A DNA stretch of 64,000 bases from Pseudomonadota bacterium (lineage in GTDB: Bacteria; Pseudomonadota; Gammaproteobacteria; Eutrophobiales; Eutrophobiaceae). The DNA is taken from positions 581,243 through 645,242 of the forward strand of contig JABFGI010000001.1 of assembly GCA_013112535.1 (NCBI GenBank), read 5' to 3'. Shown in pieces: positions 5,779-36,256 of this stretch. Every line of letters starts with the position of its first letter. Position 1 is the first letter of the stretch. The position numbers and the translations under genes were made by a program. The notes under the pieces were generated by a model. That model had not been told where the DNA came from. It ran no database searches and saw nothing but the letters and a program-made list of their open reading frames with translations.

Positions 5779-6726
5779 ATGTTAAAAAGTCATTATCGTA
5801 AAATTTCTGATAAAGACGCCCTATTATTGTTCGATAAATATCAACAACGAATAGGACGTTCAAACAGCACACGTCGAGGGTATCAATCCCACTTGGTGTA
5901 CTGGTCAACATTTGTCGACGATCTATTACACCCTTCACGCAATGATCTCCATCGCTGGTTGGCCGATCGTCGGTGCCAAATTAGTCAATCGAGTTTGAAT
6001 GGCCAACTGAGTGCGCTTCGTCAGTTTTATCGCTGGCTGTATGAATTTAAATATTGTGTTTCGGATTTCAGTCCATACATCCCTAAACCGGGACGAATCA
6101 AACGCCTGGCAGAGCCACGGCACCTGACACCCTTTGAATTGGGCTGTTTGTTGGCTGCGCCCGATATGACCACTTTGGTTGGTTTTCGTGATCACGTCAT
6201 GATGCGTCTGATGTATGAAACAGGACTGAAATCGTATGAATTGATTACGTTGACGTTCTACAGTATCGAAGAGATCGGATTTATTCGTATTTATACAGCC
6301 GGGCTTCGTGATTTCCGTTATGTCCCGATATCGGAAGAAATGTCGAATTTGATCAAAATATGGGTCGATATACGTCGTACAACTATACCTCGACGCATTG
6401 ATATTTTGTTTGTGACGAATAAAGGCAAGCCCTTTTCGAGTTCGAACAGTATCTGGATCATTGTGAATCGCTATGTTCAAGCCGCTTTGGGACTCAGAAG
6501 AGGTTATGACACCCTGCTTCGCACTCATAAAAATGTCCCTTGGAGTCACGAGTCCCCACATCTTTTTCGTGCGAGTTTTGCGCATCATCTTTTGCAATCG
6601 GGTTGTGATTTGATTGCCGTTCGAGACATGATGGGACACGTCGATGTCAAAACCACGATGACGTATCTGGGGATAGATCTGGATTATATTAAGCAAGAGC
6701 ATGCGAAATTATTTATGAATTGCTAA
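5779..6726 (+). CDS. Tyrosine-type site-specific recombinase / phage integrase family (XerC/D-like)
   Basis: N-terminal SAM-like core-binding domain. C-terminal catalytic box ...LFRASFAHHLLQSGCDLIAVRDMMGHVDVKTTMTYLGI (R...HxxR...H...Y). Confidence 0.85.
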   Translation: MLKSHYRKISDKDALLLFDKYQQRIGRSNSTRRGYQSHLVYWSTFVDDLLHPSRNDLHRWLADRRCQISQSSLNGQLSALRQFYRWLYEFKYCVSDFSPYIPKPGRIKRLAEPRHLTPFELGCLLAAPDMTTLVGFRDHVMMRLMYETGLKSYELITLTFYSIEEIGFIRIYTAGLRDFRYVPISEEMSNLIKIWVDIRRTTIPRRIDILFVTNKGKPFSSSNSIWIIVNRYVQAALGLRRGYDTLLRTHKNVPWSHESPHLFRASFAHHLLQSGCDLIAVRDMMGHVDVKTTMTYLGIDLDYIKQEHAKLFMNC

Positions 6727-13142: not shown

Positions 13143-13988
13143 CTACGGCGTCACAGTGACATCAATCGATAATTCTTTTATCTTTGCTGCAAAATCCTGC
13201 AACCATGAGGCAGGTAATTTTTTAATTATCTTTGCTTCTGGTTGCAAAGACTCCCTCTCAATTCCATAAAGCAATACGCCTTTCAATGGAATATTCCGAC
13301 TAATAACCGCTTTTAGTAAATTCAGGTAGGCATTAATCTCAGAATCGCTTGGTGGTTGACTCTTATAAGAAAATACACATGTTTGAATCAACGTGGGACA
13401 AAGATCAGCCACAATTTTTAATCGTTTTAATGACGATGTATTTGATCCCCTGACCTGATTAATTGTTGCAATACCGGTTGGTGTTGCGCTGTCAATTTTA
13501 AACCAGACTTCACCATTCATTTTGGCCAGCTTTTCCAGTCCTTTTTTGACCTGATTACGGTTTACCATACTTCCGTTCGTAATCAATACACACTTAATCG
13601 AACCAAGTAAGCCATATTCTTTTAATATAAGTTCGATTAAATTAACAACTTGATCAAATTCATTGGCGGTAGTTGGTTCGCCATTACCTGATATGGCGAT
13701 ATCTTTTATAACGCGAAACTCATCAGGTACGGCTTCCTTATCGTAAAAACTGCCGTGAATCACGTCTGCCAGAAAATTACGTAATTCCGAGGCTAATTTA
13801 TCGATATTAACTGAAGGTGCGCTACCGCGTATAAGATCCGGAACCTGACAATATATACAACGCCAATTACAGGCGTTGTTTATATTGAGGTTTACTCCAA
13901 TTGAAAGCCCGCCTGAACGGCGGGATAAAACAGGATAAATGTAAGTGAGACCAGCCTTGTCTCGGCTGTGATCTTGTGTTGTTAACAT
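13143..13988 (-). CDS. Radical SAM domain protein
   Basis: CNWRCIYC (CxxxCxxC) 4Fe-4S/SAM motif and GNGEP glycine-rich motif; 281 aa. Confidence 0.7.
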   Translation of the reverse strand: MLTTQDHSRDKAGLTYIYPVLSRRSGGLSIGVNLNINNACNWRCIYCQVPDLIRGSAPSVNIDKLASELRNFLADVIHGSFYDKEAVPDEFRVIKDIAISGNGEPTTANEFDQVVNLIELILKEYGLLGSIKCVLITNGSMVNRNQVKKGLEKLAKMNGEVWFKIDSATPTGIATINQVRGSNTSSLKRLKIVADLCPTLIQTCVFSYKSQPPSDSEINAYLNLLKAVISRNIPLKGVLLYGIERESLQPEAKIIKKLPASWLQDFAAKIKELSIDVTVTP

Positions 13989-14050: not shown

Positions 14051-14383
14051 TTAGCCTGCCATATCTTTACAACCCTTTAATGCGACTGCACGAACACTGG
14101 TTGAAGCCGGCTTAGCTTTGAACATCATTTCTTCACCTGTAAACGGGTTCGTACCTTTACGTGCTTTTCTAGCAGGCTTCTTAACACGTTTTAATTTAAC
14201 ACCCAATTCAGGCACCATAAATTCACCGCAAGCACGCGCTTTTAAATGACGTTCTGCCTGTTCTGCCAATGAAGCCAAAACAGCTTTAACATTTGCTTTT
14301 GAAAGTTCTGTTGCTTCAGCGATTTCAGCAACGATTTGTGCCTTGGTCATGCGATCTTTAACTGCTGTTGATTTATTTGCCAT
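14051..14383 (-). CDS. HU/IHF-family nucleoid-associated DNA-binding protein with a C-terminal extension
   Basis: HU-like N-terminal helices (KAQIVAEIAE...SKANVKAVLASLAEQ) and arm region; 110 aa. Confidence 0.75.
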   Translation of the reverse strand: MANKSTAVKDRMTKAQIVAEIAEATELSKANVKAVLASLAEQAERHLKARACGEFMVPELGVKLKRVKKPARKARKGTNPFTGEEMMFKAKPASTSVRAVALKGCKDMAG

Positions 14384-14712: not shown

Positions 14713-15006
14713 CTAATGATGAGTCGGTATACGCTCCATTTTTTGATACACGCGTTTATTTTCTTGCTCTAATTGCCAGAGTTTCAAGTTTGTTTGCATG
14801 CCTTTCCAGAAACGAGGGCTACTACCCAACACGCGACTTAACCGAATCGCGATATCTTCCGTAACATCACCACGTTCATTCACCACTTTCGACATGGTAT
14901 TACGAGCCACACCGCAACGCTTTGCCAACTCACTAATCGTCAAACCTGTTTCAGGCAAGATTACATTACGAATTAATGCACCAGGGTGTGAAGGTTTACG
15001 TGTCAT
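14713..15006 (-). CDS. higA: HigA antitoxin (XRE-type HTH)
   Basis: HTH ISELAKRCGVARNTMSKVVN, 97 aa; start overlaps the higB stop by 1 nt (TAATG). Confidence 0.8.
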   Translation of the reverse strand: MTRKPSHPGALIRNVILPETGLTISELAKRCGVARNTMSKVVNERGDVTEDIAIRLSRVLGSSPRFWKGMQTNLKLWQLEQENKRVYQKMERIPTHH

Positions 15007-15293
15007 TAGTGATAATCCTCTAAATTTAAATCTATTACATCATTACCATCCATGCGCCAAGTGATTCGCCAATTTCCAGTAACGCGAACACTGTACTCGC
15101 CCTTGCGTTGACCTTTTAATCCATGAAAATACAAGCCAACGATGTCCATTTCTTCCGCTTTTTCAATCGTATCAAGTGCATCCAGAATAACAATCAGGCG
15201 ATCAGCTATGATCGCACTGATACCTCGTTTATCAGTATATCGTGGGTCGTCGAAAAAACGCTTCAATCCTTTGTGGCGAAACTTTTTAATCAT
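15006..15293 (-). CDS. higB: HigB toxin (RelE/ParE-fold plasmid-maintenance killer family)
   Basis: 95 aa, HigB pattern MIKKFRHKGLKRFF...RGISA; toxin-first order with HigA downstream. Confidence 0.8.
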   Translation of the reverse strand: MIKKFRHKGLKRFFDDPRYTDKRGISAIIADRLIVILDALDTIEKAEEMDIVGLYFHGLKGQRKGEYSVRVTGNWRITWRMDGNDVIDLNLEDYH

Positions 15294-15458: not shown

Positions 15459-18400
15459 TTATGCTGACTGCCACGCTGTGGAAATAACCGATTGCACATC
15501 CTCCTGAAGTGCTTCAGGTACATCGAGTGAACCACAGTGAGAAACATTAAAGACAGCCATCGCATCAACAAGTTGCTGCACATTCGTTTCTAACAATACC
15601 GACCCATCCGATAATTCAATACGTTCAATTCGCGTATCCCTATTACTGTGCCATCCCCAACTCCAACCATGACTGTGTTTATACCAGTCTTCTATCGTCA
15701 CTTGATCTTCTGTACCGATAATGCCGATATTCAAATCTTTATGATCGCGCCAAAGCCATAAATCGTCTGCCCCGATACTTTCGCCAAAACGTAATGTGTC
15801 TTCACCCGCGTTTTCTTCTATCTCATCAACATCATCACCGCGGTTAAAGAGGTAAGTATCATTACCACGGCCACCTTCAATAACGTCATCACCAGTACCA
15901 CCGTGCAAGATGTCATTACCGCCATCACTGAAGAGCCAGTCGTGACCCGCTCCGCCTTCGTGTATGTCATCACCGGCACCGCTGTAAAGAGCATCATCTC
16001 CTTCGCCACCACTTAAAGTGTTGTTGCCGTACCAGTCTTCGAGCACATCATTACCACTGCCGCCATTTAGAGCATCATCACCCTGACCACCTAGTATCCA
16101 GTCACGACCTGCATTGCCATTCAGGATATTGTTACCAAACCATTCTTGTAAGTGATCGTTACCATTACCGCCATTAAGTACATCATCACCTGAATTACCA
16201 AAGAGCCAGTCATGTCCATTACCGCCGTTGAGAGTATCATTGCCATCGCCACCATGAAGATGGTCGTTGCTACCTCCGCCATTAAGTATATCATTCCCGT
16301 CTTCGCCAAAGAGCCAGTCAGGACGATTAAAACCATTGATAATATCTTTCTCATCTGTCCCCAGCAGAAAGTTAGAGTGATTATTACCGTTAATGACATT
16401 GGTGATATCGAGAGTAAAGGAATCACTAACACTTAACCCTTCGATATCAGTAACCGTCACTTTAATATCAAGCAGTCCGGATACATCGAATGGGACATTA
16501 CCACTGAAAGTTCGGGTTGCAGCATCAAAGCTTAACCACGCTGGTAAGGCACTACCGTCATTTAAGCTTGCTGTGTAACGTAAGGTGTCCCCATGAATAA
16601 AGTCATCATCATCGAAAATATCAGAGGGAAGTTGGTAACTAAAGCTAACACCTTCTATTGTTGCCTGATCATCAACTGGATTTGCCAACACTGGATTATC
16701 GTTAACATTGTTAATCACCACTCTAAATTCATCATCAGTACTCAATCCAGCACTGTCTGTTGCTGTGACTTTGATATCAAGATTCCCGACATCATCATTA
16801 TCAGGGGTGCCACTGAAGGTTTGGGTTGCCGCATCAAACGTTAACCAACCCGGTAAGTTACTATCATCAGAGAGTGACGCGCTATAATTTAAGGTGTCGT
16901 TTGCATCGTCCACATCATCAAAGGTGTTTGCGGGGATTGTGAAACTGAACGGTGCATCTTCATCGATAACCTGATCGGTAATCACATTGCTCAGTGTTGG
17001 TGTATCGTTCGTCCCGTTAATGGTGATTTGAACGGTGCTCGCTGTACCGTCGACACTGCTTGCATTAAACGTTTCACTAACACTGTCACCGACATTTAAA
17101 CTATCAAACGACTCGTTCGCATTAAACGTCCAGTTACCTGCTACATCAATATCAAACGTACCGATGGCGCCAACGGTATTACTTGCGGTGAACACATTGT
17201 CCTCGTTATCCACATCACTACTGGTTAATGTTCCAGCTGTTGTCAGCACTGCATCAGTTTCATTTAAAGTTTCAACGGCATTGCTGACGGTTGCAGCGTC
17301 ATTAACATTATTAACAGTCAAGCTGAATTCATCGCTGACACTGTGACCGCCTGTATCAGTTACTGTTACTTTGACCTCAATATTATCAACATCATCATTC
17401 ACGGGTGTGCCACTAAAGGTTTGTGTGGCTGCATCAAAACTTAACCAACTCGGCAATGCAGAATCATCACTTAATGTGGCGTTGTATATTAATGTATCGC
17501 CAACATCCGGATCACTAAACGTATTCGCTGGTATTGTAAATGAAAAAACGTGATCTTCATCTGTTGCTTGATCCGATATCCCTGCATCGACGAAAGGGGC
17601 ATTATTGATATTTGTGTTTCCATTAATAGTGAGACGAAATGACTCATCGACACTTAAGCCGCCAGCATCCGTTGCTATCACATTAATTTCAATAACGCCC
17701 ACATCGTTATCATCTGGAGTGCCGTTAAAGGTTTGTGTTGCAGCATCAAAGCTTAGCCAATCTGGTAATACTTCGCCGTTTTTTAATGTCGCTGTATAAG
17801 ACAATGCATTACCTGACTCTGGATCGATAAAGGCATCATCAGGAATAACATAACTAAAAATAGCATCCTCATCGACAACCTGGTTTTCTAGTCCGGTATT
17901 AACACCAGGAGCGAGATTTATATCATTACCACTAATCAGTCCTTCAATATCATCATTATTGAGCGTAAGAGCGTTGTCACCTGTAAATATAAATTGTTCA
18001 ATAACAGCATTGGAATCATCAAACCAGCCCGTCACGGTAACCGTCTGACCAGCGCCAAAAGAAAGAATTAAATCATCGCCCGATTGACTAACATTTAAAT
18101 CAGTTACAGATAATCCTTCCCCAAAGAAAACGCGATCAAAACCACCTACTTCTAATATCGTATCGTGACCATCATTAGCATTAATAATATAGGTGTCATC
18201 ACCAACGCCACCTTCAAGATGGTCATTTCCAGTGTTTCCTATAATTATATCGTTTCCTTCTCCACCTATAACAATATCGTTTCCTTCGCCGCCATCCAGT
18301 TCATCATCGCCTTCGCCACCATCAAGTGTGTCATTACCAGCAAAGCCGTTTATACGATCGACGATTTCTGTACCATTTAATTCATCGTCACCTGCTGTAC

Positions 18401-21400
18401 CATCAAAACCAAAACCTAAATCCAGAACATCCTGATAAGTCAGAGTAAAACTGTCATTAAACGTAATACGTTCAAATAAATCAGGAATACCAGATAAGTC
18501 ATTGGTGTCAACATCAGTAAAATACAATTGAATTTGTCCATCAAAAATATCGATAATTAAAGAACCTCTGTGTATGGAAATATCACTGCGAGTAACGTGT
18601 TTCTTTGTATAAATATCAAACGCATTAATACCGTGAAACGAAGATGGCAGAAGAAGCGTATACCGTCCTTTTGAAGCAGTATAGGGATTAGATTGAGAAC
18701 CAATTTTTACTGTATTTAAACTGCTGCTGGACGTTTGAATAGTATAATTTCGGTTGATGTTTTGTTCCCCGGAAAGATTGATAACATTTTCACCTGAACC
18801 GGCATTAATAATCGCAGTTTCGACATCACCGACATTAATAATGTCATTGCCATCAAGCGTAAAGATTTTTTGATCACTTTCTACTACATCAACAATGTCA
18901 CTTTCATTACTACCCAAGACGTCAATTTCATTTCGAAAATCCTTGCCATAAACCAGGTAGCTTTCACCGTTATTAAGATTAGCTCCCGCAGCACTAACAA
19001 GTAAATCATCAAAACCATCACCATTAACATCTCCGGCAGCACTGACAACGCTTCCACTTTGGTCTCCGCTAATATTACCGGTTAACTGAAACCCGTTTTG
19101 TCCATCTAGTTCATCTAAATTAACAGAAGTCTGAATACCTCCCTGCTTTCCATATACCAGATAAGAAATACCCACATTATTTTCGCTATTGACTGTTTTA
19201 TCTGACATGCCGATTAAAATATCACTCAGGCCATCACCATTCACATCACCTGCCGCGCTTACAGAAGAAATACTGCCGCCTGATAAACTGAATAATGATA
19301 AAGCGCCTGCACCTAAACTATTAGCATTAACATCAGCAGTAAAATTATTTTCCTTACCATAAATGACATGAGCCGTATTACTGTGATGAACAACAAGCAG
19401 GTCATCAATACCATCACCATTAATATCCCCCACACCTTCTGCACGCATAGTTTCAGCATTTGTCTCATACATTCCGTTTAATCGGAAACCATTGCTGCCA
19501 TCTAGTGAATTAATATCAAATGAATTCGAAAAACCTGTTTGACCAAGAACAACATAGCCTAACGGTAAATTAAATCCGCCTAATGGATCGCGCGGATCAG
19601 GAAGACCGGGTACGGCTTCAGGCGCATAAACAAAAAGATCATCCAGACCATCGTTGTTGATGTCACCAATGTCGGTTACGGTTGTGCCTGTTTCACTGTT
19701 GGCAACATTACCGGAAAAACTAAAACCATTACTGCCATCTAAAACATCAATGTCGATGTTATAACTTGAAAAATCAGATCGACCAAAGACAATAGAAACG
19801 TCACCGGTTGTTCCGTTTGTGTCTGGTGTACCGATGATTACATCATCAAACCCATCTCCATTGATATCACCTGCCCCATCCACCTGAATATTACTGTTAC
19901 TGTTAATCGCATTGCCAGTAAGTACAATTCCTTGATCAGCACTAAGGTTATTCAAGTCTATATCACTACTAAAACCACTCTCATGACCAAATAACACAGC
20001 ACTTTGTCCCGGGTTTAGATCCGAACTCATTCCAATGATTACATCATCAAACCCGTCACCATTCACATCGCCTGCACTTTTTATAGAATTAATCGCTAAA
20101 CTGGAAGAAAAATGAACGCCGTTATTGCCATTCAAATTTGTTAAATCGAATGTTGAATTCAGTTGTTCTTGCTGACCAAAAACCAAATAACTTCCCTGAG
20201 TTTGATTACCTTGTATTAAAACATCATCAAACCCGTCCCCATTGACATCACCCGCAGAGGCTACAGCTTGCCCACCATTTTCAAAAATTACTTCCTGGCT
20301 TAATGAAATCGTCCCCACTACTTCGGTACCGCGTATTGTTAGCGATAAAGTGGAGTTTGATATTTCACCACTGTCATCACTCATAGTGTAATCGACCAAC
20401 ACAGTAGCAACATCACCAGCAATTAAATCAGTAAAATCATTGCCCGGATCAAATTTAAGCTGATTGTTCTCGATTGACACGCTGCCTTTGTTGCCTTGAA
20501 GGGTAACAGTGTCTAATGAAAAATTTGAAACATCATCATCCGGATCGAGATCGGTATCATTAGCAAGCACATCAATTAAAAACGCATTGTTTGCAGCAGC
20601 TGGAAATAATCGTGCAGCTATACCGCCATCAAGGTCACCACTACTGCTTGAACTAGTCTGCCAGACTGCTACCAGACCACCATCGCTGAGTAAGTTAATA
20701 GAAGGTCGCTGTTGGTTATTATCAACAAGTTCATTAACAAGAAACGTGGTAACTTGTCCCTGATCATTAAATCTTGCTGCAATAACAGCAAGATCATCCT
20801 GATCATCACCCTGGTCAGCAAAGCTATTCCAGCTTACAATAAAGCCGTTGTTACTATCAGCAACAACGCTGTAATCCCTGCCAAATAATTCAAAATCAGA
20901 ATTAAGTAATATCGCTTGTCCCTGTGAGATACCTGAACTATTAAATCGTTGACCATAGATATTTTCAGTAGCACTGGAATAAATCCAGGTCACCATATAG
21001 TCGTCACCGGATAAAGCCACGACTTCCGGAGAAATCATTTGCGAAGGCTGAATAGCGACGGATAAAGGGATTTCTCCTGTTAGTGCATTACCTTGATTAT
21101 CATAAAAGCGAGCACTTAAAGGCGTTTCATCTTGTAGTTCAACTGAGATTGGACGATTGTGATCATTCGATTCCCAAACAATGGCAAAGCTGCCATCTGT
21201 TTGCACAGCAACTTTAGGCATATCCTGGTTATCAAATGAAAACGTATTAACTTCAAATTCATTACCCACTTTTACTCCATTCGCATCAAAACGTTGACCG
21301 GCTATTTCACTTTCGGTAGTTGCTCCACCTTCATGTTCTGTCATCCAAACAGCAATAAAACCGCCATCAGGTAAACCAGCAATGTCGATTGATGTTTGAA

Positions 21401-29954: not shown

Positions 29955-29979
29955 AATTCAAGATTCAAGACCTGACCCC
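29955..29979. repeat. IR copy R4 (reverse orientation; AATTCAAGATTCAAGACCTGACCCC), the left-end IR of the element. It also supplies the stop of the upstream lipase-like ORF.
   Basis: Exact reverse-complement core. Confidence 0.7.
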
Positions 29980-30512
29980 GTTTGCTTAAATTCATTAAGT
30001 CTATCATTGCTTTCCCAGGCTCCTTTCCCATCATTTGCAGTCGCATTCCAACTTTCGCCATTTTGTAAATGAGAATAATACTCTTCCATATCATGCAACT
30101 GGGCATAGGCAAACCCATGAAAACCTATCTCCAAATCAGCACCAAACGCATCACGTTCTTTATCACCTCCTTTACTACTTGGCTGTGACTCAGTGCTTCG
30201 AAATGAAAGGGTAAATTCACCCGTGTTTTTATTCTTTAGAACAGTCGCAGAAAAGCCACTATTGGTATTGGATAAATGATCAATCACTTCCCAGGTGGCA
30301 AAGAAGTCATCGATCATGACTTCTGTCATTTGGGTAGGGCCTTTAGTCAGTTCATCGAACTTTTGCAGATGGTCATAATGATTGCTGCCGTTAATTAATC
30401 TTTCAATAAAGTCATCATCACTTTCATTTGTAAAATCTACGCCATCCAGATAACTTTCTGCTGCATATTGTGCCAGAACAAATTCATATGTTGTGCGTAT
30501 ATCAATCGCCAT
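29958..30512 (-). pseudogene. N-terminal fragment of a class 3 lipase-like (Lipase_3 / DUF2974-type) protein, truncated by the IR/IS insertion before the GxSxG nucleophile
   Basis: Lipase_3-like blocks LAQYAAESY, SGFSATVL...FTLSFRSTES and LEIGFHGFAYA are present. There is no serine-elbow region. The ORF runs into R4. Confidence 0.4.
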
Positions 30513-31257
30513 TATCCTTCTCCTCCATTAGTGATCTCAGCTGGAATGAGCACTTTGCTTATAAAATCAACAACCATCGTGTCGTTTTTACCTTTCGGAC
30601 AGATTGTCATATCGCCTGTCTGTTCGTTTTTATAAAAAAAACCTTTTTTGATACCTAATATCTCATCAGTCTTTAATTCTTTAACAATGAGTTCGCCTTC
30701 CCACACACCATAACGTTTATCCTTTTCACTTCTGATTTCGCGCCAAGTAAATGCATATTTACTCTGCAAATCTGATATCTGCTTAGTAACATAAAGACTA
30801 CCCCAATCACTAGCAGGGCCAAAATAAGAATAACGCCAGTATTTTTCTCCTGTATCTTTAGGTTCTTCTGCAAGTTTCGTTGTAGGGAATCGCCTATCGT
30901 AAAATTTCCCCGCATTTGGTGCACGTGCTGTTTCAAGATATTGATAATAATTTCTATTTTTAGATGGATACACGAATAAACTTTCTACTTTACGTGCTTC
31001 ATAGTTCGTATGCCCATAAGGATCTTCCGGCAAATCTCCTTCTCTTAATCGTGTAAAATAATCTCGTGGATCACGCGGCCGCATCTGAAACAGCCCTTCC
31101 ACATTCTCCACCGTACGATAAATAAACTCCCCCGCATCCTGCTCACAACGAGACTGAAAATAATCCATTGAGGTTTTATTCCAATACCATCGATAAGTTG
31201 GATAGATAGCAATCAATATTCCTATAACAATAATGAATTTATTTTTGGTTAACATAA
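30512..31257 (-). CDS. Hypothetical membrane-anchored (signal-anchor) protein. The longer ORF to 31420 is an artefact of overlap with the duplicated fragment.
   Basis: Start at MLTKNKFIIVIGILIAIYPTY (signal anchor) followed by about 220 aa of hydrophilic domain; no family recognised. Confidence 0.4.
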
Positions 31258-31316
31258 ACTGGTTCCTTTTTGTGTTCCATGTATTAAATTTTTGGTCTAA
31301 GACACCACCTTGAACA

Positions 31317-31631
31317 TCAAGCCCCTTTCCCATCATTTGCAGTCGCATTCCAACTTTCGCCATTTTGTAAATGGGAATAATATTCTTCCATATCATGCAA
31401 CTGGGCATAAGCAAAACCATGAAAACCTATCTCCAAATCAGCACCAAACGCATCACGTTCTTTATCACCTCCTTTACTACTTGGCTGTGACTCAGTGCTT
31501 CGAAATGAAAGGGTGAATTCACCCGTGTTTTTATTCTTTAGAACAGTCGCAGAAAAGCCACTATTGGTATTGGATAAATGATCAATCACTTCCCAGGTGG
31601 CAAAGAAGTCATCGATCATGACTTCTGTCAT
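31317..31631 (-). pseudogene. Duplicate (about 98% identity) of the 3' two-thirds of the lipase-like fragment gene at 29958-30512; its 5' end is cut by IR copy R5
   Basis: 104 aa identical to residues 62-165 of the 184-aa ORF; about 325-bp direct DNA repeat. Confidence 0.55.
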
Positions 31632-31651
31632 TTGTCTCTAGGGTCTCTCTA

Positions 31652-31868
31652 GGGTCAGGTCTTGAATCTTGAATTTATTCATACCATCTCTTCCTCATAT
31701 TTTTTTATAATTTTACTCACGGTGCTGTAATGCAGTCCAAAATAGTTAGCTATTTCTTTTTGGGAGTATGTGTCATCTTTATAAGCAGCAAAAATATCTT
31801 TTTTATAAATTTTTATCATTCTTAAATACCTTCTTAATAGTTCAATTCAAGATTCAAGACCTGACCCC
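31652..31868 (-). mobile_element. Deleted (MITE/REPIN-like) derivative of the IS/REPtron. Inverted IR copies R5 (31652-31682) and R6 (31846-31868) flank a 46-codon remnant of the transposase C-terminal HTH (31686-31826).
   Basis: Remnant encodes MIKIYKKDIFAAYKDDTYSQKEIANYFGLHYSTVSKIIKKYEEEMV. The same ATACCATCTCTTCCTCATATTTTT tail follows R3 and R5. Confidence 0.55.
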
Positions 31869-32181
31869 ATAGAGACCCCATAGATTGTTCTGTAAAGGCA
31901 TAAGGTGGATAACGCCGACCGCCGCGTTGACTTGAGATCCCAAAATGGGATCTCAAACTTTCGTGTTCTTCTTCGCTAAGCTGAAACATAAAATCTTCCG
32001 GAAAACGTTCTATATTTCTTTTCACGGCTCTGGTTAGAATTCTAGTTTCAACCTCATATAGACTTGCCAAATCAGCATCTAACAAAACTTTTTGACCACG
32101 TATAAATAAAATGCTGTTGGCTATACTTTGCAAAGGTATCAGCTTAGTTGTTGAAGTGATTTTCTTTTTCTTAGCCATCAT
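31834..32181 (-). pseudogene. ORF6N (KilA-N-like) DNA-binding domain protein, C-terminally truncated and fused to IR copy R6
   Basis: ORF6N core [42 protein letters not shown]...[14 protein letters not shown]. The last 10 codons ([11 protein letters not shown]) are encoded by the IR. Start overlaps the hlyD stop. Confidence 0.6.
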
Positions 32182-33518
32182 TACCTCTCCCTGACACTCT
32201 CATCCTTATAACGAAGCAAAGGACTTAATAGATATTCTATTAAACGTCGTTTACCAAGATTAACTTCGACTGTTACCGCCATGCCGGGCGTTAGGTTGAC
32301 TATCTTTTCTTTTACTTGCATTGTTGTTTGATGCATCTTGACACGCATGGCATAGACCAGCCCCAGGTTTTCATCCGGTGTTGCGTCATTTGAAACGTTT
32401 AATATTTCCGCATCGACTAATCCGTACTTAGTAAACGGAAAAGTTTCGACTTTAATGGCAGCTGCCTGTCCTTCTTGAACGAAACCAATGTCTTTATTCG
32501 GCAACCATGCTTCGACTTCAACCGGATCATCATGCGGTATAATGTGCATGAGTTCTTGTGCAGGCGTGACAACACCACCAATCGTATGTATCGCCAACTG
32601 GTGCACTGTGCCTGTAACAGGAGATGTTAAATTTTGTAAGGTAACGCGTTTATCAGCTTTAATGACTTCCTGATTAAATGCCGAGATACGATTTTCGATA
32701 TCAGTGAGTTCGGTCAATAGTGTTTTTTCAAACTCGGCTTTTTGTGCGGCGAGTCGTTGATTGATATTAGCTATAGCTGAATCCACCATGCGTGAATTAT
32801 TTTTTTGTACATTACGTTCTTGTACTTGTTCGATGCGTTCTTGCTCTAACTCCAGCCACTGCACACGTGGCACCATGTTGTCTTTTAATAAATCTTTGAG
32901 TGATTTTGCTCTTTCTGTAATAAGCGGGATGGTTGAATCGAGTTGTTTGATACGTTCGGCTGTTGCGCTGTGCTCTGCCTGGCGTTGTTTTTTTTCGTCT
33001 TTTAGGGCTTCAAGTAAGGAATAATATTCATGCAATTGTTTCTCAACTCTGTCTTGTTGTAATTTTATTTGTGCTGGAGTTGCATCACTTAATTCCGAGA
33101 ATGTATCTTTTTCTGCTTTACCATCTACTTTATTAAGAATGGTTTGTATACGTGCCCGATCCAGTTTTAATGCAAGCTGTTGATCTTTAGTCTGCATTTG
33201 ATCAGCATCCGTTAAGGTTGGATCAAGTTCAATTAACACGTCACCGGCTTGAACATGGTCACCTTCTTTAACATATATCTCTCTGACGATACCTGTTTCG
33301 AGCGGCTGAATAATCTTCACACGACTACTTGGGACAATCTTTCCCATCGCTACGCTGACAATATCAATTTGACCGATGCATGCCCATGCAACGCCAATAC
33401 TAAAAAAAGTCACTATCGCCCAGACAATATAACGTGCCATCGGTAACGGTGGTGTTTGCTGGATTTCTAACGCAGCAGGTAGAAATTCAAGTTCGTTATT
33501 TGTAATTTGGCTTTTCAT
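32181..33518 (-). CDS. Type I secretion periplasmic adaptor (HlyD family)
   Basis: 445 aa; N-terminal cytoplasmic and TM segment, long coiled-coil, lipoyl and beta-barrel motifs typical of HlyD. Confidence 0.85.
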
Positions 33519-33583
33519 ATTATATGGCTATATTTATGTATTTTTATATTGCTATTAATATGGCTATTTACTAGACTCAAACT

Positions 33584-33868
33584 ATGGGCAAGGAAAGCTT
33601 TGAATGGGATACGGAAAAGGATCTCAAAAACCAGTTGAAACATGGCGTTTCGTTCGAAGAAGCGCAATTGGTCTTTAAGGACCCAAATAAAGTAATTTTG
33701 CGAGATAAAACACACAGTATTAATGAAGAGCGACATTTTTGCATTGGTAAAACAGATGAAATTATTCTGACTGTTAGATTCACCTATAGAGAAAACAGAA
33801 TACGAATTATTGGCGCCGGGGCATGGCGTAGAGGTAAAAAACTTTATGAAGAAAAAAATAGAATATAG
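33584..33868 (+). CDS. brnT: BrnT-family ribonuclease toxin (DUF497)
   Basis: FEWDxxKxxxNxxKHGVSFEEAxxVFxDP motif; 94 aa; overlaps the brnA start. Confidence 0.75.
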   Translation: MGKESFEWDTEKDLKNQLKHGVSFEEAQLVFKDPNKVILRDKTHSINEERHFCIGKTDEIILTVRFTYRENRIRIIGAGAWRRGKKLYEEKNRI

Positions 33869-34094
33869 TGATCTTCCTCCTGGAGATGAACCGATCGGTG
33901 AGTTAGAAATTATCGAAGATTTTCTACCTCCACCTGAGGAACTCGTATTTAAAAAAGATAATACTAAAATTACCATTGCTTTAAGTCGCTCCAGTGTTGA
34001 GTTCTTTAAAAAGGAAGCAAAAAAACATCACACGCAATATCAAAAGATGATTCGTAATCTTCTTGATGAGTATGTTGCTCGCCATGATTCTTAA
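33846..34094 (+). CDS. brnA: BrnA antitoxin (RHH/CopG-like); start at internal Met MKKKIEY
   Basis: C-terminal ITIALSRSSVEFFKKEA...YQKMIRNLLDEYV matches the BrnA pattern; toxin-first overlapping arrangement. Confidence 0.65.
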   Translation: MKKKIEYSDLPPGDEPIGELEIIEDFLPPPEELVFKKDNTKITIALSRSSVEFFKKEAKKHHTQYQKMIRNLLDEYVARHDS

Positions 34095-34114: not shown

Positions 34115-36256
34115 TCATGTTGGCGCCACCATGCCTAATTGATGAGAATAAAGCTTGTTGTAATACCCTTGTAACTCCATTAACTCAGCATGTGTTCCAC
34201 CTTCAACGATCTGCCCTTTATCGATCACAATAATATTGTCGGCTTCTCGAACAGCACTAAGTCTATGTGCAATAATAAAAACCGTTCGCCCTTTACAGAT
34301 GTAACGCATGTTTTGATGAATGATATGCTCGGATTCATAATCCAATGCACTGGTGGCTTCATCAAAGATTAAAACTTTGGGATTCGTAATCAGTGCGCGC
34401 GCAATAGCAATGCGCTGGCGTTGGCCACCGGAAAGATTACAGCCGTGTTCGCCAACTTCATTGTCATAGCCTTCAGGTAGTTCGAGTATAAATTCATGTG
34501 CGCCTGCCATCTTGGCTGCTTGTACGACGCGCTCCATTGGCATGGCCGGATCGCTTAATGAGATATTTTCGCGAACGGAACGATTAAAGAGAAAGTTTTC
34601 CTGTAGAACGACACCGATATTGCGTCTTAACCAAACGGTATCGACCATGGCGAGATCTACACCATCGACTAACACGCGGCCACTTTGCGGAACATATAAA
34701 CGTTGAATGAGTTTAGTTAAGGTACTTTTACCCGAGCCCGAACGACCAACAATACCAATCACTTTGCCCGCAGGCACATGCAACGACACGTTGCGTAAAA
34801 TTTCCGGACTATCAGGACGGTATCGAAACGTTACGCCTTCAAAAGTAACTCGTCCTTCCAGCTCTGGTAAGGAGGCACGACCGGGACTATACGCAGGTTC
34901 AGGTTGCGCATTTAAAATATCGCCTAATCGTTCAACTGATATTCCTGCTTGCTGAAACTCTTGCCAGAGTTGTACCAAGCGCAATATAGGACCACTGACA
35001 CGACCGGCTAACATATTAAAGGCAACTAATTGTCCAACTGATAACTCGCCATTAATAACTAAACGCGCACCTACCCACAATATAAGGAGCACTGTCACTT
35101 TATTAATAAAGGAAGCTATCTGACTGGCAATATTACCCAGGTTAGTTGCTTTGAAACTCGATGAAACATAACCGGCAAGTTGTTCTTCCCATTGTCGCTG
35201 GCTTTGTGGCTCTACGGCACTGGTTTTAATTGTTTCAAATCCATTTACGGATTCGACTAAAAAGGATTGATTTTCTGCGCCGCGATTAAATTTCTCATGC
35301 AAACGTGCTCGCAAGATGGGAGTAATGATGATTGCAAGAATAATATAAAACGGAATAGCGCCGAGCACGACATAGGTTAAGACAGGACTATAAAGATACA
35401 TGACGGCAAAAAAGACAAGCGTAAAAAATAAATCAATCACCAGCGTTAACGCTGAGCCCGTAATAAAGTTTCTAATACTATCCAATTCCCTGACTCGTGC
35501 GACAATATTACCGACTCGCCGAGCTTCAAAATAACTTAAAGGGAGACGCATCAGGTGCCGAAACAAATCGGCGCCTAACGTCACATCGATGCGACTGGTG
35601 GTATGAGAAAACACATACGTTCGTAACGCATTCAATATCACATCAAATAATGAAACAACAAGTAAACCAAAAGCCAGCACATCGAGCGTGGTTAATCCTC
35701 GATGAACTAATACTTTATCAATAACAACTTGGAAGAATAGCGGAGTAATCAGTGCAAAAATTTGTATAAAGAATGAAGCTAATAAAACTTCTAGCAGGAG
35801 CTTCTTATATTTAAGTATCGCCGGAATAAACCAGGAAAAATCAAACTTCTTTAACTCAGCAAGAATCCCGGCACGCTTTGTAACCAGTATAAGATGACCA
35901 TTCCAACGCACTTGAAACTCTTCAACAGTTAAACTTTCCGGACCTTGATTAAGCGGGTCTTGAATAAGAACTTTATCTTCTACCTGTTGCGCCAGAATAA
36001 AGTAATGGCCGTCCTTGTGCTGGGCGATAGCGGGAAGCCGGGTTTTGGCAATTCTTTCTTGAGTACTGGATATGGCCTTTGCCTTCAGGCCGACCGATTT
36101 TGCCCCGCGCAGAATTTCTGACTCGGTAAAATGCTGCCCTGATTGTCCGTAATGATGTTTGAGCTGCCCCGGATCGGCTGGCATACCATGCAGTCGCGAC
36201 AGCATGACTAGACAGACCAATCCTGAGTCTACCTGCTCAGGAACTTCCTGATCCAA
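34115..36256 (-). CDS. Type I secretion ABC transporter (HlyB family) with N-terminal degenerate C39-like domain (CLD)
   Basis: 713 aa. N-terminal CLD with DSGLVCLVML, where Ser replaces the catalytic Cys of the C39 CG motif as in RTX exporters. 6-TM domain. Walker A GRSGSGKST, signature LSGGQRQR, Walker B ILIFDEATSALD. Confidence 0.9.
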   Translation of the reverse strand: MDQEVPEQVDSGLVCLVMLSRLHGMPADPGQLKHHYGQSGQHFTESEILRGAKSVGLKAKAISSTQERIAKTRLPAIAQHKDGHYFILAQQVEDKVLIQDPLNQGPESLTVEEFQVRWNGHLILVTKRAGILAELKKFDFSWFIPAILKYKKLLLEVLLASFFIQIFALITPLFFQVVIDKVLVHRGLTTLDVLAFGLLVVSLFDVILNALRTYVFSHTTSRIDVTLGADLFRHLMRLPLSYFEARRVGNIVARVRELDSIRNFITGSALTLVIDLFFTLVFFAVMYLYSPVLTYVVLGAIPFYIILAIIITPILRARLHEKFNRGAENQSFLVESVNGFETIKTSAVEPQSQRQWEEQLAGYVSSSFKATNLGNIASQIASFINKVTVLLILWVGARLVINGELSVGQLVAFNMLAGRVSGPILRLVQLWQEFQQAGISVERLGDILNAQPEPAYSPGRASLPELEGRVTFEGVTFRYRPDSPEILRNVSLHVPAGKVIGIVGRSGSGKSTLTKLIQRLYVPQSGRVLVDGVDLAMVDTVWLRRNIGVVLQENFLFNRSVRENISLSDPAMPMERVVQAAKMAGAHEFILELPEGYDNEVGEHGCNLSGGQRQRIAIARALITNPKVLIFDEATSALDYESEHIIHQNMRYICKGRTVFIIAHRLSAVREADNIIVIDKGQIVEGGTHAELMELQGYYNKLYSHQLGMVAPT

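Follow-up and report, generated by a model that had tools for sequence, protein, structure and literature searches.

The window analysed here (a 64,000-nucleotide stretch of a gammaproteobacterial genome of the Eutrophobiaceae; assembly GCA_013112535.1, contig JABFGI010000001.1, positions 581,243 to 645,242 of the forward strand) encodes a giant RTX protein of 3748 amino acids (aa) at nucleotides (nt) 15459..26705 of the reverse strand. We found that the N-terminal head of this giant is one of several interchangeable modules joined through a conserved linker to a long adhesin-like body, that the class of head co-varies with the class of a partner protein encoded directly upstream, and that displaced cassettes of partner and head sequence lie upstream of such genes. 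We favour, with moderate confidence, the reading of this protein as a polymorphic effector exported by a type I secretion system (T1SS), with a pore-former-like head and an immunity-like partner. The toxin-like reading of the head is favoured because a dedicated partner with four transmembrane (TM) segments co-varies with the head type.

The giant gene is a single uninterrupted open reading frame (ORF), and its ATG is preceded 7 nt upstream by a GGAG Shine-Dalgarno sequence. As the N-termini of eight homologues also line up with its first methionine, the N-terminus is genuine and not the product of truncation. Two ORFs of 232 and 246 aa lying upstream, both encoding He_PIG sequence, were considered as a frameshifted 5' extension of the gene; this was rejected because they are 74%–79% identical copies of the region encoding aa 1328-1569, bounded by REP-like elements, and because the giant has its own Shine-Dalgarno sequence and aligned start. 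The protein is strongly acidic (641 acidic versus 155 basic residues), and an identical sequence is deposited at NCBI (NOG59410.1/MBL1140945.1) under the label "hypothetical protein".

Modularity of the head became apparent from the relatives of the N-terminal region. An exhaustive phmmer search with aa 1-466 against 1.84 billion representatives returned 20 matches at E ≤ 1e-3, of which 19 carry the linker motif and the remaining one (P0017) is a spurious repetitive sequence. The region common to the 19 corresponds to aa 320-420 of the giant (G.A.RYALxELNPF ... FY..HN ... LD..NFS.EY..DRA..L) and sits within a domain, aa 240-416, modelled by AlphaFold2 at a pLDDT of 70-85. This conserved linker domain (aa 240-420; 25446..25988, on the reverse strand like all domain coordinates in the giant gene) is common to RTX giants with differing heads; its core motif reads RYALLELNPY in the giant (aa 354-363; 25617..25646), and R354, Y355 and N361 are invariant. 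The heads ahead of the linker are unrelated to each other. Heads of the same type as in the giant (hereafter window-type) occur in six to eight of the phmmer relatives, including P0004, a 3699-aa protein with the same overall architecture, while others carry a lipase-like alpha/beta-hydrolase head with a GHSLGG motif, for which the Lipase_3 match was sub-threshold, or still other heads.

Genomes were scanned with a linker-only alignment, the full head alignment having no conserved stretch, and 62 loci were recovered from Nitrospira, Burkholderiales, Chromatiaceae, Thiotrichales, Neisseria, Kingella, Pseudomonas indica, Methylomonas lenta and others. The scan added a third class of head, consisting of an N-terminal domain of approximately 300 aa followed by a Gly/Ala hairpin of 42-50 residues, such that at least three unrelated head classes precede the RYALxELNPF linker. 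Loci of the third class (L014, L021-L023, L025, L030, L036, L038 and L045; for example in Pseudomonas indica NBRC 103045) have a central SAP turn in the hairpin, which stands immediately ahead of the linker, and always have a soluble partner of approximately 145 aa that begins MAFVNEYI and bears no likeness to HlyC.

Directly upstream of the giant, and overlapping its ATG with a TAA stop codon, is the gene for the candidate immunity protein (26705..27229, reverse strand), a 174-aa protein with four TM-like segments and no Pfam or NCBIfam match. The ORF itself is longer (204 aa, 26705-27319) and opens inside a repeat element; the true start is M31 (nt 27229), and NCBI independently calls the same 174-aa product. 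A multi-TM ORF lies directly upstream in all seven window-type loci for which upstream DNA was available (the window, L001, L002, L005, L006, L007 and L058), with its stop overlapping the start of the giant gene or at most 20 nt away. These partners range from 165 to 233 aa in six loci (for instance 174 aa in L001, 176 aa in L002, 197 aa in L005, 233 aa in L006 and 179 aa in L007) and reach 342 aa in L058. The partners in the window and in L001 are weakly similar (pairwise E 6e-5), and the gene order in L005 is that of the window, namely exporter ATP-binding cassette (ABC) protein, membrane-fusion protein, Y1 transposase, partner and head.

Could the giant instead be an ordinary RTX adhesin, in which the N-terminal hydrophobic stretch and the upstream ORF do not act together, the ORF being an unrelated membrane protein or an artefact of REP and transposase debris? 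The upstream region is indeed rearranged, with six copies of a 24-nt element, a REP-associated tyrosine transposase (RAYT) and gene fragments, and neither partner nor head belongs to an annotated family. We nevertheless regard this explanation as very improbable, given that the multi-TM ORF recurs at the same close spacing in all window-type loci from unrelated assemblies, that the position of a charge-free hairpin is conserved across heads sharing only 17%–35% identity, and that the 174-aa ORF was called independently.

Partners of the lipase-like heads are of a different kind, being anchored at the N-terminus. Their main family carries the motif AGEFIYxTVENVEG and comprises at least 1670 sequence clusters, all of them labelled "hypothetical" and without a Pfam match; a profile of this partner class matched no chain in the PDB at E ≤ 10. 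Heads and partners from 54 loci were each clustered on their own. Partner cluster 0 (N-anchored) accompanied 26 of 34 lipase heads, partner cluster 1 (soluble, approximately 145 aa) accompanied 11 of 12 third-class heads and a multi-TM partner accompanied all five window-type heads, and there was no cross-pairing between head and partner classes.

Head exchange can be seen within a single assembly, which contains both a window-type head (P0002) and a lipase head (P0006). Compared in 30-residue windows, these two proteins are 13%–33% identical before the RYAL motif and 87%, 87%, 90%, 80%, 83% and 80% identical after it, and swap junctions fall at or beside this motif. The window itself holds the remains of another head. 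An intact orphan partner of the lipase class (30512..31255, reverse strand; 247 aa from M56, with an N-terminal anchor and the AGEFIYRTVENVEG motif) is 52% identical (E 6e-85) to the L004 partner, the product of the ORF upstream of lipase-headed P0006. It is followed by a truncated lipase-type head (29958..30512, reverse strand) that retains aa 1-184 of a head of approximately 550 aa and ends at a REP-like element, and a partial copy of this truncated head, 98% identical, lies at 31317-31631. Similarly, L002 has two cassettes, each with a partner gene and a lipase head, upstream of a full-length window-type gene. The second of these extends beyond the head to take in the linker and the first RTX block, after which it is identical in sequence to the full-length gene, and it is the footprint of a displaced head. 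One orphan cassette was also found in L060 (Neisseria sp.). At L002:990-7983 (metagenomic contig ERZ25072999/OZ244982.1), each cassette opens with a conserved coiled-coil ORF of approximately 99 aa ahead of the partner gene (copies at 990, 3540 and 7151), an ORF with no equivalent in the window.

The variable head of the giant (aa 1-235; 26001..26705) is predicted to be all-alpha and has no Pfam, NCBIfam or PDB relative. TM assignment was based on hydropathy and charge. The original prediction had described two long hydrophobic segments near the N-terminus, and these were borne out: the only 19-residue windows in the whole giant with a Kyte-Doolittle value of at least 1.5 fall at aa 134-160 (1.84; 26226..26306) and aa 183-211 (1.87). 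The first contains three aspartates (D140, D149 and D156) and therefore does not make a clean TM helix. The second belongs to a Gly/Ala/Ser-rich segment of 43 residues (aa 169-211, GLISAFGSGLTYLGFTAILGASSTVATGAAIVAGLGLSAYFIF; 26073..26201), which is the sole run of at least 30 residues free of D, E, K, R and H in the giant and in which the density of small-xxx-small motifs reaches its maximum for the whole protein. AlphaFold2 returned an all-helical head in which helices 164-187 and 192-210 make a hairpin, at a pLDDT below 50 over aa 1-237, and we consider this uncharged hairpin the convincing membrane element of the head. Uncharged runs are 22-55 aa long in other window-type heads and 14-22 aa in seven of eight lipase heads. 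A colicin-like helical bundle fits the 43-residue charge-free run and the predicted helices, with the pLDDT of the model below 50 and no fold match. By analogy, the all-helical module around a charge-free hairpin would follow the design of membrane-inserting domains of the colicin, Bcl-2 and diphtheria-T type.

No family could be assigned to aa 1-470 by Pfam or NCBIfam; at E ≤ 0.1 a chance Gp23 match was the only Pfam hit, NCBIfam gave none at E ≤ 1e-3, and neither PF02382 nor the N-terminal part of NF033943 was matched. Comparison of the head with the PDB, by sequence or by head profile, yielded chance matches only, Foldseek of the head model (poor over aa 1-237) found nothing in the PDB at E < 0.5, and a word-indexed homologue search recovered no relatives for aa 1-466 or for a head-only alignment, relatives having come from the exhaustive phmmer search alone. 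PADLOC matched neither the head nor either partner.

The T1SS genes lie upstream on the same strand. The ABC exporter (34115..36256, reverse strand) belongs to the HlyB subfamily (TIGR01846, 1081 bits against a cutoff of 725), with a score under the cutoff for the LssB-type model; in its N-terminal C39-like domain, DSG stands in place of what we take to be the catalytic DCG. The membrane-fusion protein (32181..33518, reverse strand) is of the HlyD family (TIGR01843, 413 bits against a cutoff of 209). Pfam scans, which covered the great majority of ORFs of at least 90 aa within the 64-kb window, detected no LapG (C93/BTLCP), no LapD and no HlyC acyltransferase (PF02794). A 153-aa ORF at 33515-33976 (reverse strand) was considered as a candidate HlyC and rejected: it looks spurious, being of low complexity, unmatched in Pfam and located across a BrnT/BrnA-like pair encoded on the opposite strand. 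The LapG dialanine motif [TAP]AA[GV] is absent from all 3748 aa of the giant (AA dipeptides in the first 500 aa occur as DAAF, IAAT, GAAI and YAAQ), and no BapA/LapA prefix was matched at its N-terminus by Pfam or NCBIfam. The claim that the giant has no LapA-type retention plug thus held, in keeping also with the HlyB-subfamily exporter.

The original prediction had further likened the N-terminus to the pore-forming or anchor regions of RTX toxins. The co-varying partner does favour a toxin-like reading of the head, but the likeness does not extend to homology with PF02382 or NF033943, to an HlyC or to more than a single hairpin. Overall, its observations were partly confirmed and its interpretation partly supported; what it missed is that the head is one of several interchangeable modules and that the upstream ORFs are a partner and the debris of displaced cassettes. 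These same results bear on whether the giant is a relative of classical RTX pore-forming cytolysins or leukotoxins, directed against eukaryotic membranes and equipped with an unusually long adhesin-like extension. Such a relationship would account for the HlyB/HlyD-type exporter, for the order of parts (hydrophobic N-terminus, linker, then RTX repeats, as in HlyA and CyaA) and for the NCBIfam RTX_toxin match of 420 bits, though this is confined to the repeat region. We consider it distinctly unlikely: aa 1-470 lack the family's signatures, no HlyC-type acyltransferase was found in the scanned ORFs, one hairpin replaces a multi-helix hydrophobic domain of at least 200 aa, and the membrane partner and orphan partner genes imply self-protection, which a toxin aimed at eukaryotes would not need.

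An alternative that we judge unlikely, although less so than the two above, is that the head is a retention or anchor device independent of LapG, with the four-TM partner as its dock or release factor. A T1SS exports the C-terminus first, and the hairpin, which would be the last part to leave, could lodge in the envelope of the producer, by stalled export or by partitioning, and thereby keep the adhesin attached to the cell. The body is adhesin-like, with immunoglobulin (Ig)-like units, a lectin-like propeller and an FG-GAP propeller; known giant T1SS adhesins such as LapA and MpIBP are held by their N-termini; and the hydrophobic element is N-terminal and paired with a protein of inner-membrane type. 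Sister genes, however, have a lipase-like enzyme or another soluble domain at this position, each with its own partner, and these are no anchors. An intact orphan partner beside a dead head suits immunity better than docking, and the HlyB-type exporter, the lack of LapG and LapD in the window and the missing dialanine site also speak against retention. An anchoring role could coexist with a toxin role, by analogy with the secretion arrest of CdiA-like proteins.

Under the favoured reading of a polymorphic effector with an immunity-like partner, the giant would be a three-part protein, in which an adhesin-like body (RTX repeats, Ig-like domains and two propellers) is joined by the conserved linker at aa 240-420 to an exchangeable N-terminal effector head. 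The body would bind the surface of a target cell and the head would enter its membrane, leading to permeabilisation or depolarisation, while the four-TM partner, whose gene would be translationally coupled to that of the head-bearing giant, would sit in the inner membrane of the producer and neutralise the head in the manner of an immunity protein. With the T1SS signal at the C-terminus, the variable toxin module would have to be at the N-terminus, and the immunity gene and displaced orphan cassettes would accordingly be found upstream. More broadly, and tentatively, we propose a reversed-polarity class of polymorphic toxin systems, comprising HlyBD-exported RTX giants with swappable N-terminal heads (pore-former-like, phospholipase-like and others), the RYALxELNPF linker, and upstream immunity genes and orphan cassettes. 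In such systems the head might stay with the producer until the body has met a target; we hold this broader proposal to be somewhat less probable than the effector reading of the giant itself.

Several points weigh against the effector reading. We infer toxicity, pore formation and protection throughout, as we do the target (bacterial or eukaryotic) and the route of delivery; the N-terminal head of a 3748-aa protein would have to cross the outer membrane of a target cell. No sequence or structural relative of the head was detected among known pore-formers, and its AlphaFold2 model is of low confidence (pLDDT below 50 over aa 1-237). Window-type loci number only seven to eight in the searched databases, and the four-TM partners are too diverged for BLAST to cluster, such that their kinship is argued from position, size, topology and one weak pairwise match. 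The giant gene also lies downstream of REP and RAYT debris, and in scans ahead of the partner gene and past the end of the giant gene, candidate promoters and terminators did not exceed those in shuffled sequence; its expression is thus putative.

The remainder of the giant was mapped by running Pfam and NCBIfam on the full protein and on nine overlapping segments, together with motif scans. A first RTX nonapeptide block (aa 483-561; 25023..25259) follows the N-terminal region and leads into a conserved beta-rich module without a Pfam family (aa 562-720; 24546..25022; GDxIxDSDGxGxV...NFxxGDLGIxL). A self-processing module of the FrpC type was considered for aa 460-740 and rejected, as PDB matches there were to RTX repeats alone, and the module at aa 562-720 did not match the solved FrpC self-processing module. 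Further RTX blocks with inserts (aa 721-819, 904-948, 1005-1033 and 1167-1229) and an HCBP_related unit at approximately aa 1267-1310 occupy 23019..24545, and two Ig-like He_PIG domains follow at aa 1437-1633 (21807..22397).

The QRF-repeat array (aa 1648-2040; 20586..21764) has no Pfam family. Its AlphaFold2 model, built on a four-sequence alignment, is a seven-bladed beta-propeller with a lectin-like fold (pLDDT 79.5, pTM 0.83), for which the best Foldseek matches were CylK (E 3e-11), the Photorhabdus lectins PHL and PLL, and Chromobacterium CV39L (TM-score 0.69). The related giants P0004, P0006 and P0011 each have one or two arrays of this QRFDxNG...GGFVVxW repeat. A Cadherin_5-like Ig domain assigned by Pfam (approximately aa 2041-2125; 20331..20585) separates the array from a second, integrin-alpha-type propeller of seven FG-GAP repeats (approximately aa 2140-2600; 18906..20288). 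Beyond these are an internal RTX block at aa 2796-2840 with an HCBP_related unit at approximately aa 2878-2910 (17976..18320), and four He_PIG domains with one Cadherin_4/VCBS/Big_9 domain (approximately aa 3127-3250) that together span aa 2935-3437 (16395..17903). The protein ends with a C-terminal RTX block (aa 3476-3619), an HCBP_related unit (aa 3657-3704) and a tail (15462..16280 in all); the tail, LVDAMAVF...TAWQSA, is kept in homologues and is presumed to be the T1SS signal.

In total, the giant has at least seven RTX nonapeptide blocks with 20 HemolysinCabind stretches, four HCBP_related units, approximately eight Ig-like units (six He_PIG, one Cadherin_5 and one Cadherin_4/VCBS/Big_9) and seven FG-GAP stretches in Pfam. 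The last agree with seven GD[VI]N[GN]DG motifs at aa 2152-2564 and with the seven repeats predicted from the sequence. RTX blocks had been predicted at three or more places, which was right as to their presence and an undercount as to their number, the block at aa 2796-2840 having been missed. The QRF array had been described as about six copies, propeller-like; six QRF motifs and a propeller were found, with seven blades and a lectin-like character. More than ten He_PIG or cadherin-like Ig units had been expected, a figure that the approximately eight found do not sustain.

The region between the HlyD gene and the giant gene is littered with fragments. A 24-nt element, GGTCAGGTCTTGAATCTTGAATTT, is present there in six copies (27275, 28221, 28989, 29954 on the reverse strand, 31653, and 31843 on the reverse strand, all within 27275-31866) and nowhere else in the window, against zero expected, and its copies bound every gene fragment in the region. 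At several ORF starts it translates as "KFKIQDLTP", and it probably serves the adjoining RAYT as a REP-like target or end. This REP-associated tyrosine transposase (29015-29944, reverse strand; Y1_Tnp with a C-terminal helix-turn-helix (HTH)) scores 79 bits with NF047646, against a cutoff of 80, and a second transposase fragment retains the C-terminal part only (28002-28256, reverse strand). In L005, an unrelated metagenomic locus, a Y1_Tnp gene likewise stands between the membrane-fusion protein and partner genes. Two diverged copies of the region encoding aa 1328-1569 (27301..29018, reverse strand) have the transposase fragment between them; at 27337-27969 and 28287-28973 they show 76% and 79% nt identity to the gene and 73% to each other. 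Each copy, which includes an HCBP-like unit and a He_PIG domain, comes after a REP-like element. They could be relics of older alleles, or else silent cassettes that act as donors when the Ig region undergoes gene conversion.

Other neighbouring genes were noted. An ORF6N-domain gene (31834-32181, reverse strand) directly follows the membrane-fusion protein gene and ends in a REP-like element, and a BrnT toxin gene (PF04365) with an overlapping BrnA-like ORF (33584-34094, forward strand) lies between the ABC and membrane-fusion protein genes. Directly downstream of the giant is a pair encoding a HigB-like toxin and an HTH antitoxin (14713-15293, reverse strand), and next after it is an HU-family gene (14051-14383). 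A radical SAM protein (13143-13988, reverse strand) weakly resembles the viperins of prokaryotes: PADLOC matched it to pVip at E 3e-8, and the NCBIfam viperin model gave it 30.6 bits where 180 are required. With a score so far under the family cutoff, this is only a hint of a defence gene. A phage-type integrase gene lies approximately 9 kb past the other end of the giant (5779-6726, forward strand). The T1SS genes and the giant may be part of an island that is mobile or undergoing rearrangement.

Polymorphic toxin systems have been defined by their C-terminal toxins, in a survey that refers to T1SS in connection with classical RTX toxins alone (Zhang et al. 2012, PMC3482391). More recently, an antibacterial effector of a type IV secretion system was found to be homologous to the N-terminal domains of many RTX proteins, and FrpC and FrpD were hypothesised, in the context of Smlt3024/Smlt3025, to be a T1SS effector/immunity pair (Bayer-Santos et al. 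2019, PMC6759196). This proposal is the only related idea that we found, the T1SS having so far gone uncounted as a polymorphic-toxin route, and our literature search found no description of RTX giants with exchangeable heads at the N-terminus, with the RYALxELNPF linker or with orphan cassettes upstream. The window and approximately 60 related loci show mirror-image signatures of polymorphic toxins, namely swappable heads, co-varying partners, orphan cassettes and a sharp junction, and they contribute three protein families that neither Pfam nor NCBIfam models (that of the linker, that of window-type heads and their four-TM partners, and that of the lipase-head partners). If the interpretation is true, the T1SS would join the type V, VI and VII secretion systems (T5SS, T6SS and T7SS) as a route of contact-dependent, kin-discriminating antagonism, many "giant RTX adhesins" would be reclassed as antibacterial weapons, and the function of FrpC-like proteins would become directly testable. 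Culturable relatives include Pseudomonas indica NBRC 103045, Methylomonas lenta R-45370 and Neisseria sp. WLZKY-1.

Comparison with known systems places the giant between several of them. The Caulobacter CdzC/CdzD/CdzI system (PMC5380434) resembles the system proposed here in its T1SS export, surface association, glycine-zipper-rich antibacterial proteins and inner-membrane immunity protein, whereas Cdz proteins are small bacteriocins using a bacteriocin-type T1SS, with no RTX or adhesin body, modular head or conserved linker. RTX cytolysins (HlyA, CyaA and LtxA) have the same HlyB/HlyD-type exporter and hydrophobic helices before the RTX repeats; the giant differs in having no homology to their hydrophobic domain, no HlyC gene, a single hairpin and a dedicated membrane partner. 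The giant adhesins LapA, MpIBP and SiiE are alike in size, Ig-like repeats, propeller or lectin ligand modules, and C-terminal RTX repeats with a T1SS signal, but the giant lacks an N-terminal retention module, a LapG site and a nearby LapG/LapD, and its exporter is of the HlyB subfamily.

Pore-forming colicins (A, E1 and Ia) have an all-helical domain of approximately 200 aa around an uncharged hairpin of approximately 40 residues, and a small inner-membrane protector with three to four TM helices encoded alongside, a design that the predicted head and its candidate immunity protein would parallel. Neither sequence nor fold matched, however, and membership of the colicins fails on homology; the colicin pore domain is at the C-terminus of a lysis-released protein of 500-600 aa, whereas the head described here is N-terminal in a 3748-aa T1SS substrate. 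FrpC of Neisseria meningitidis (PMC5233953, PMC6759196) is likewise an RTX protein exported by a T1SS, and its N-terminal domain is bound by FrpD, the product of the gene directly upstream. FrpD is an outer-membrane lipoprotein with a beta-sheet fold, in contrast to the helical four-TM partner in the window, and the head and partner families had no sequence match to PDB entries, including FrpD. Moreover, the giant has no Asp-Pro self-processing module (the LDLDGDG motif is absent), and no polymorphism or orphan cassettes have been described for FrpC.

The closest parallel is with CdiA/CdiI and Rhs (PMC3482391). These systems likewise combine a giant filamentous or repeat body with a variable module joined at a conserved motif, a small cognate protective gene at the toxin end, and orphan cassettes that keep a piece of the body sequence. 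Of these features, a variable module at a conserved junction, an adjacent co-varying partner (with a putative protective role) and orphan cassettes were all observed here. The junction in the RTX giants is RYALxELNPF rather than VENN or PxxxxDPxGL, and toxicity here is putative. The giants leave the cell through an HlyBD-type T1SS that reads a C-terminal signal, instead of through a T5SS or T6SS, and the variable module is N-terminal with the partner and orphans upstream, an arrangement that is the mirror image of that in CdiA and Rhs.

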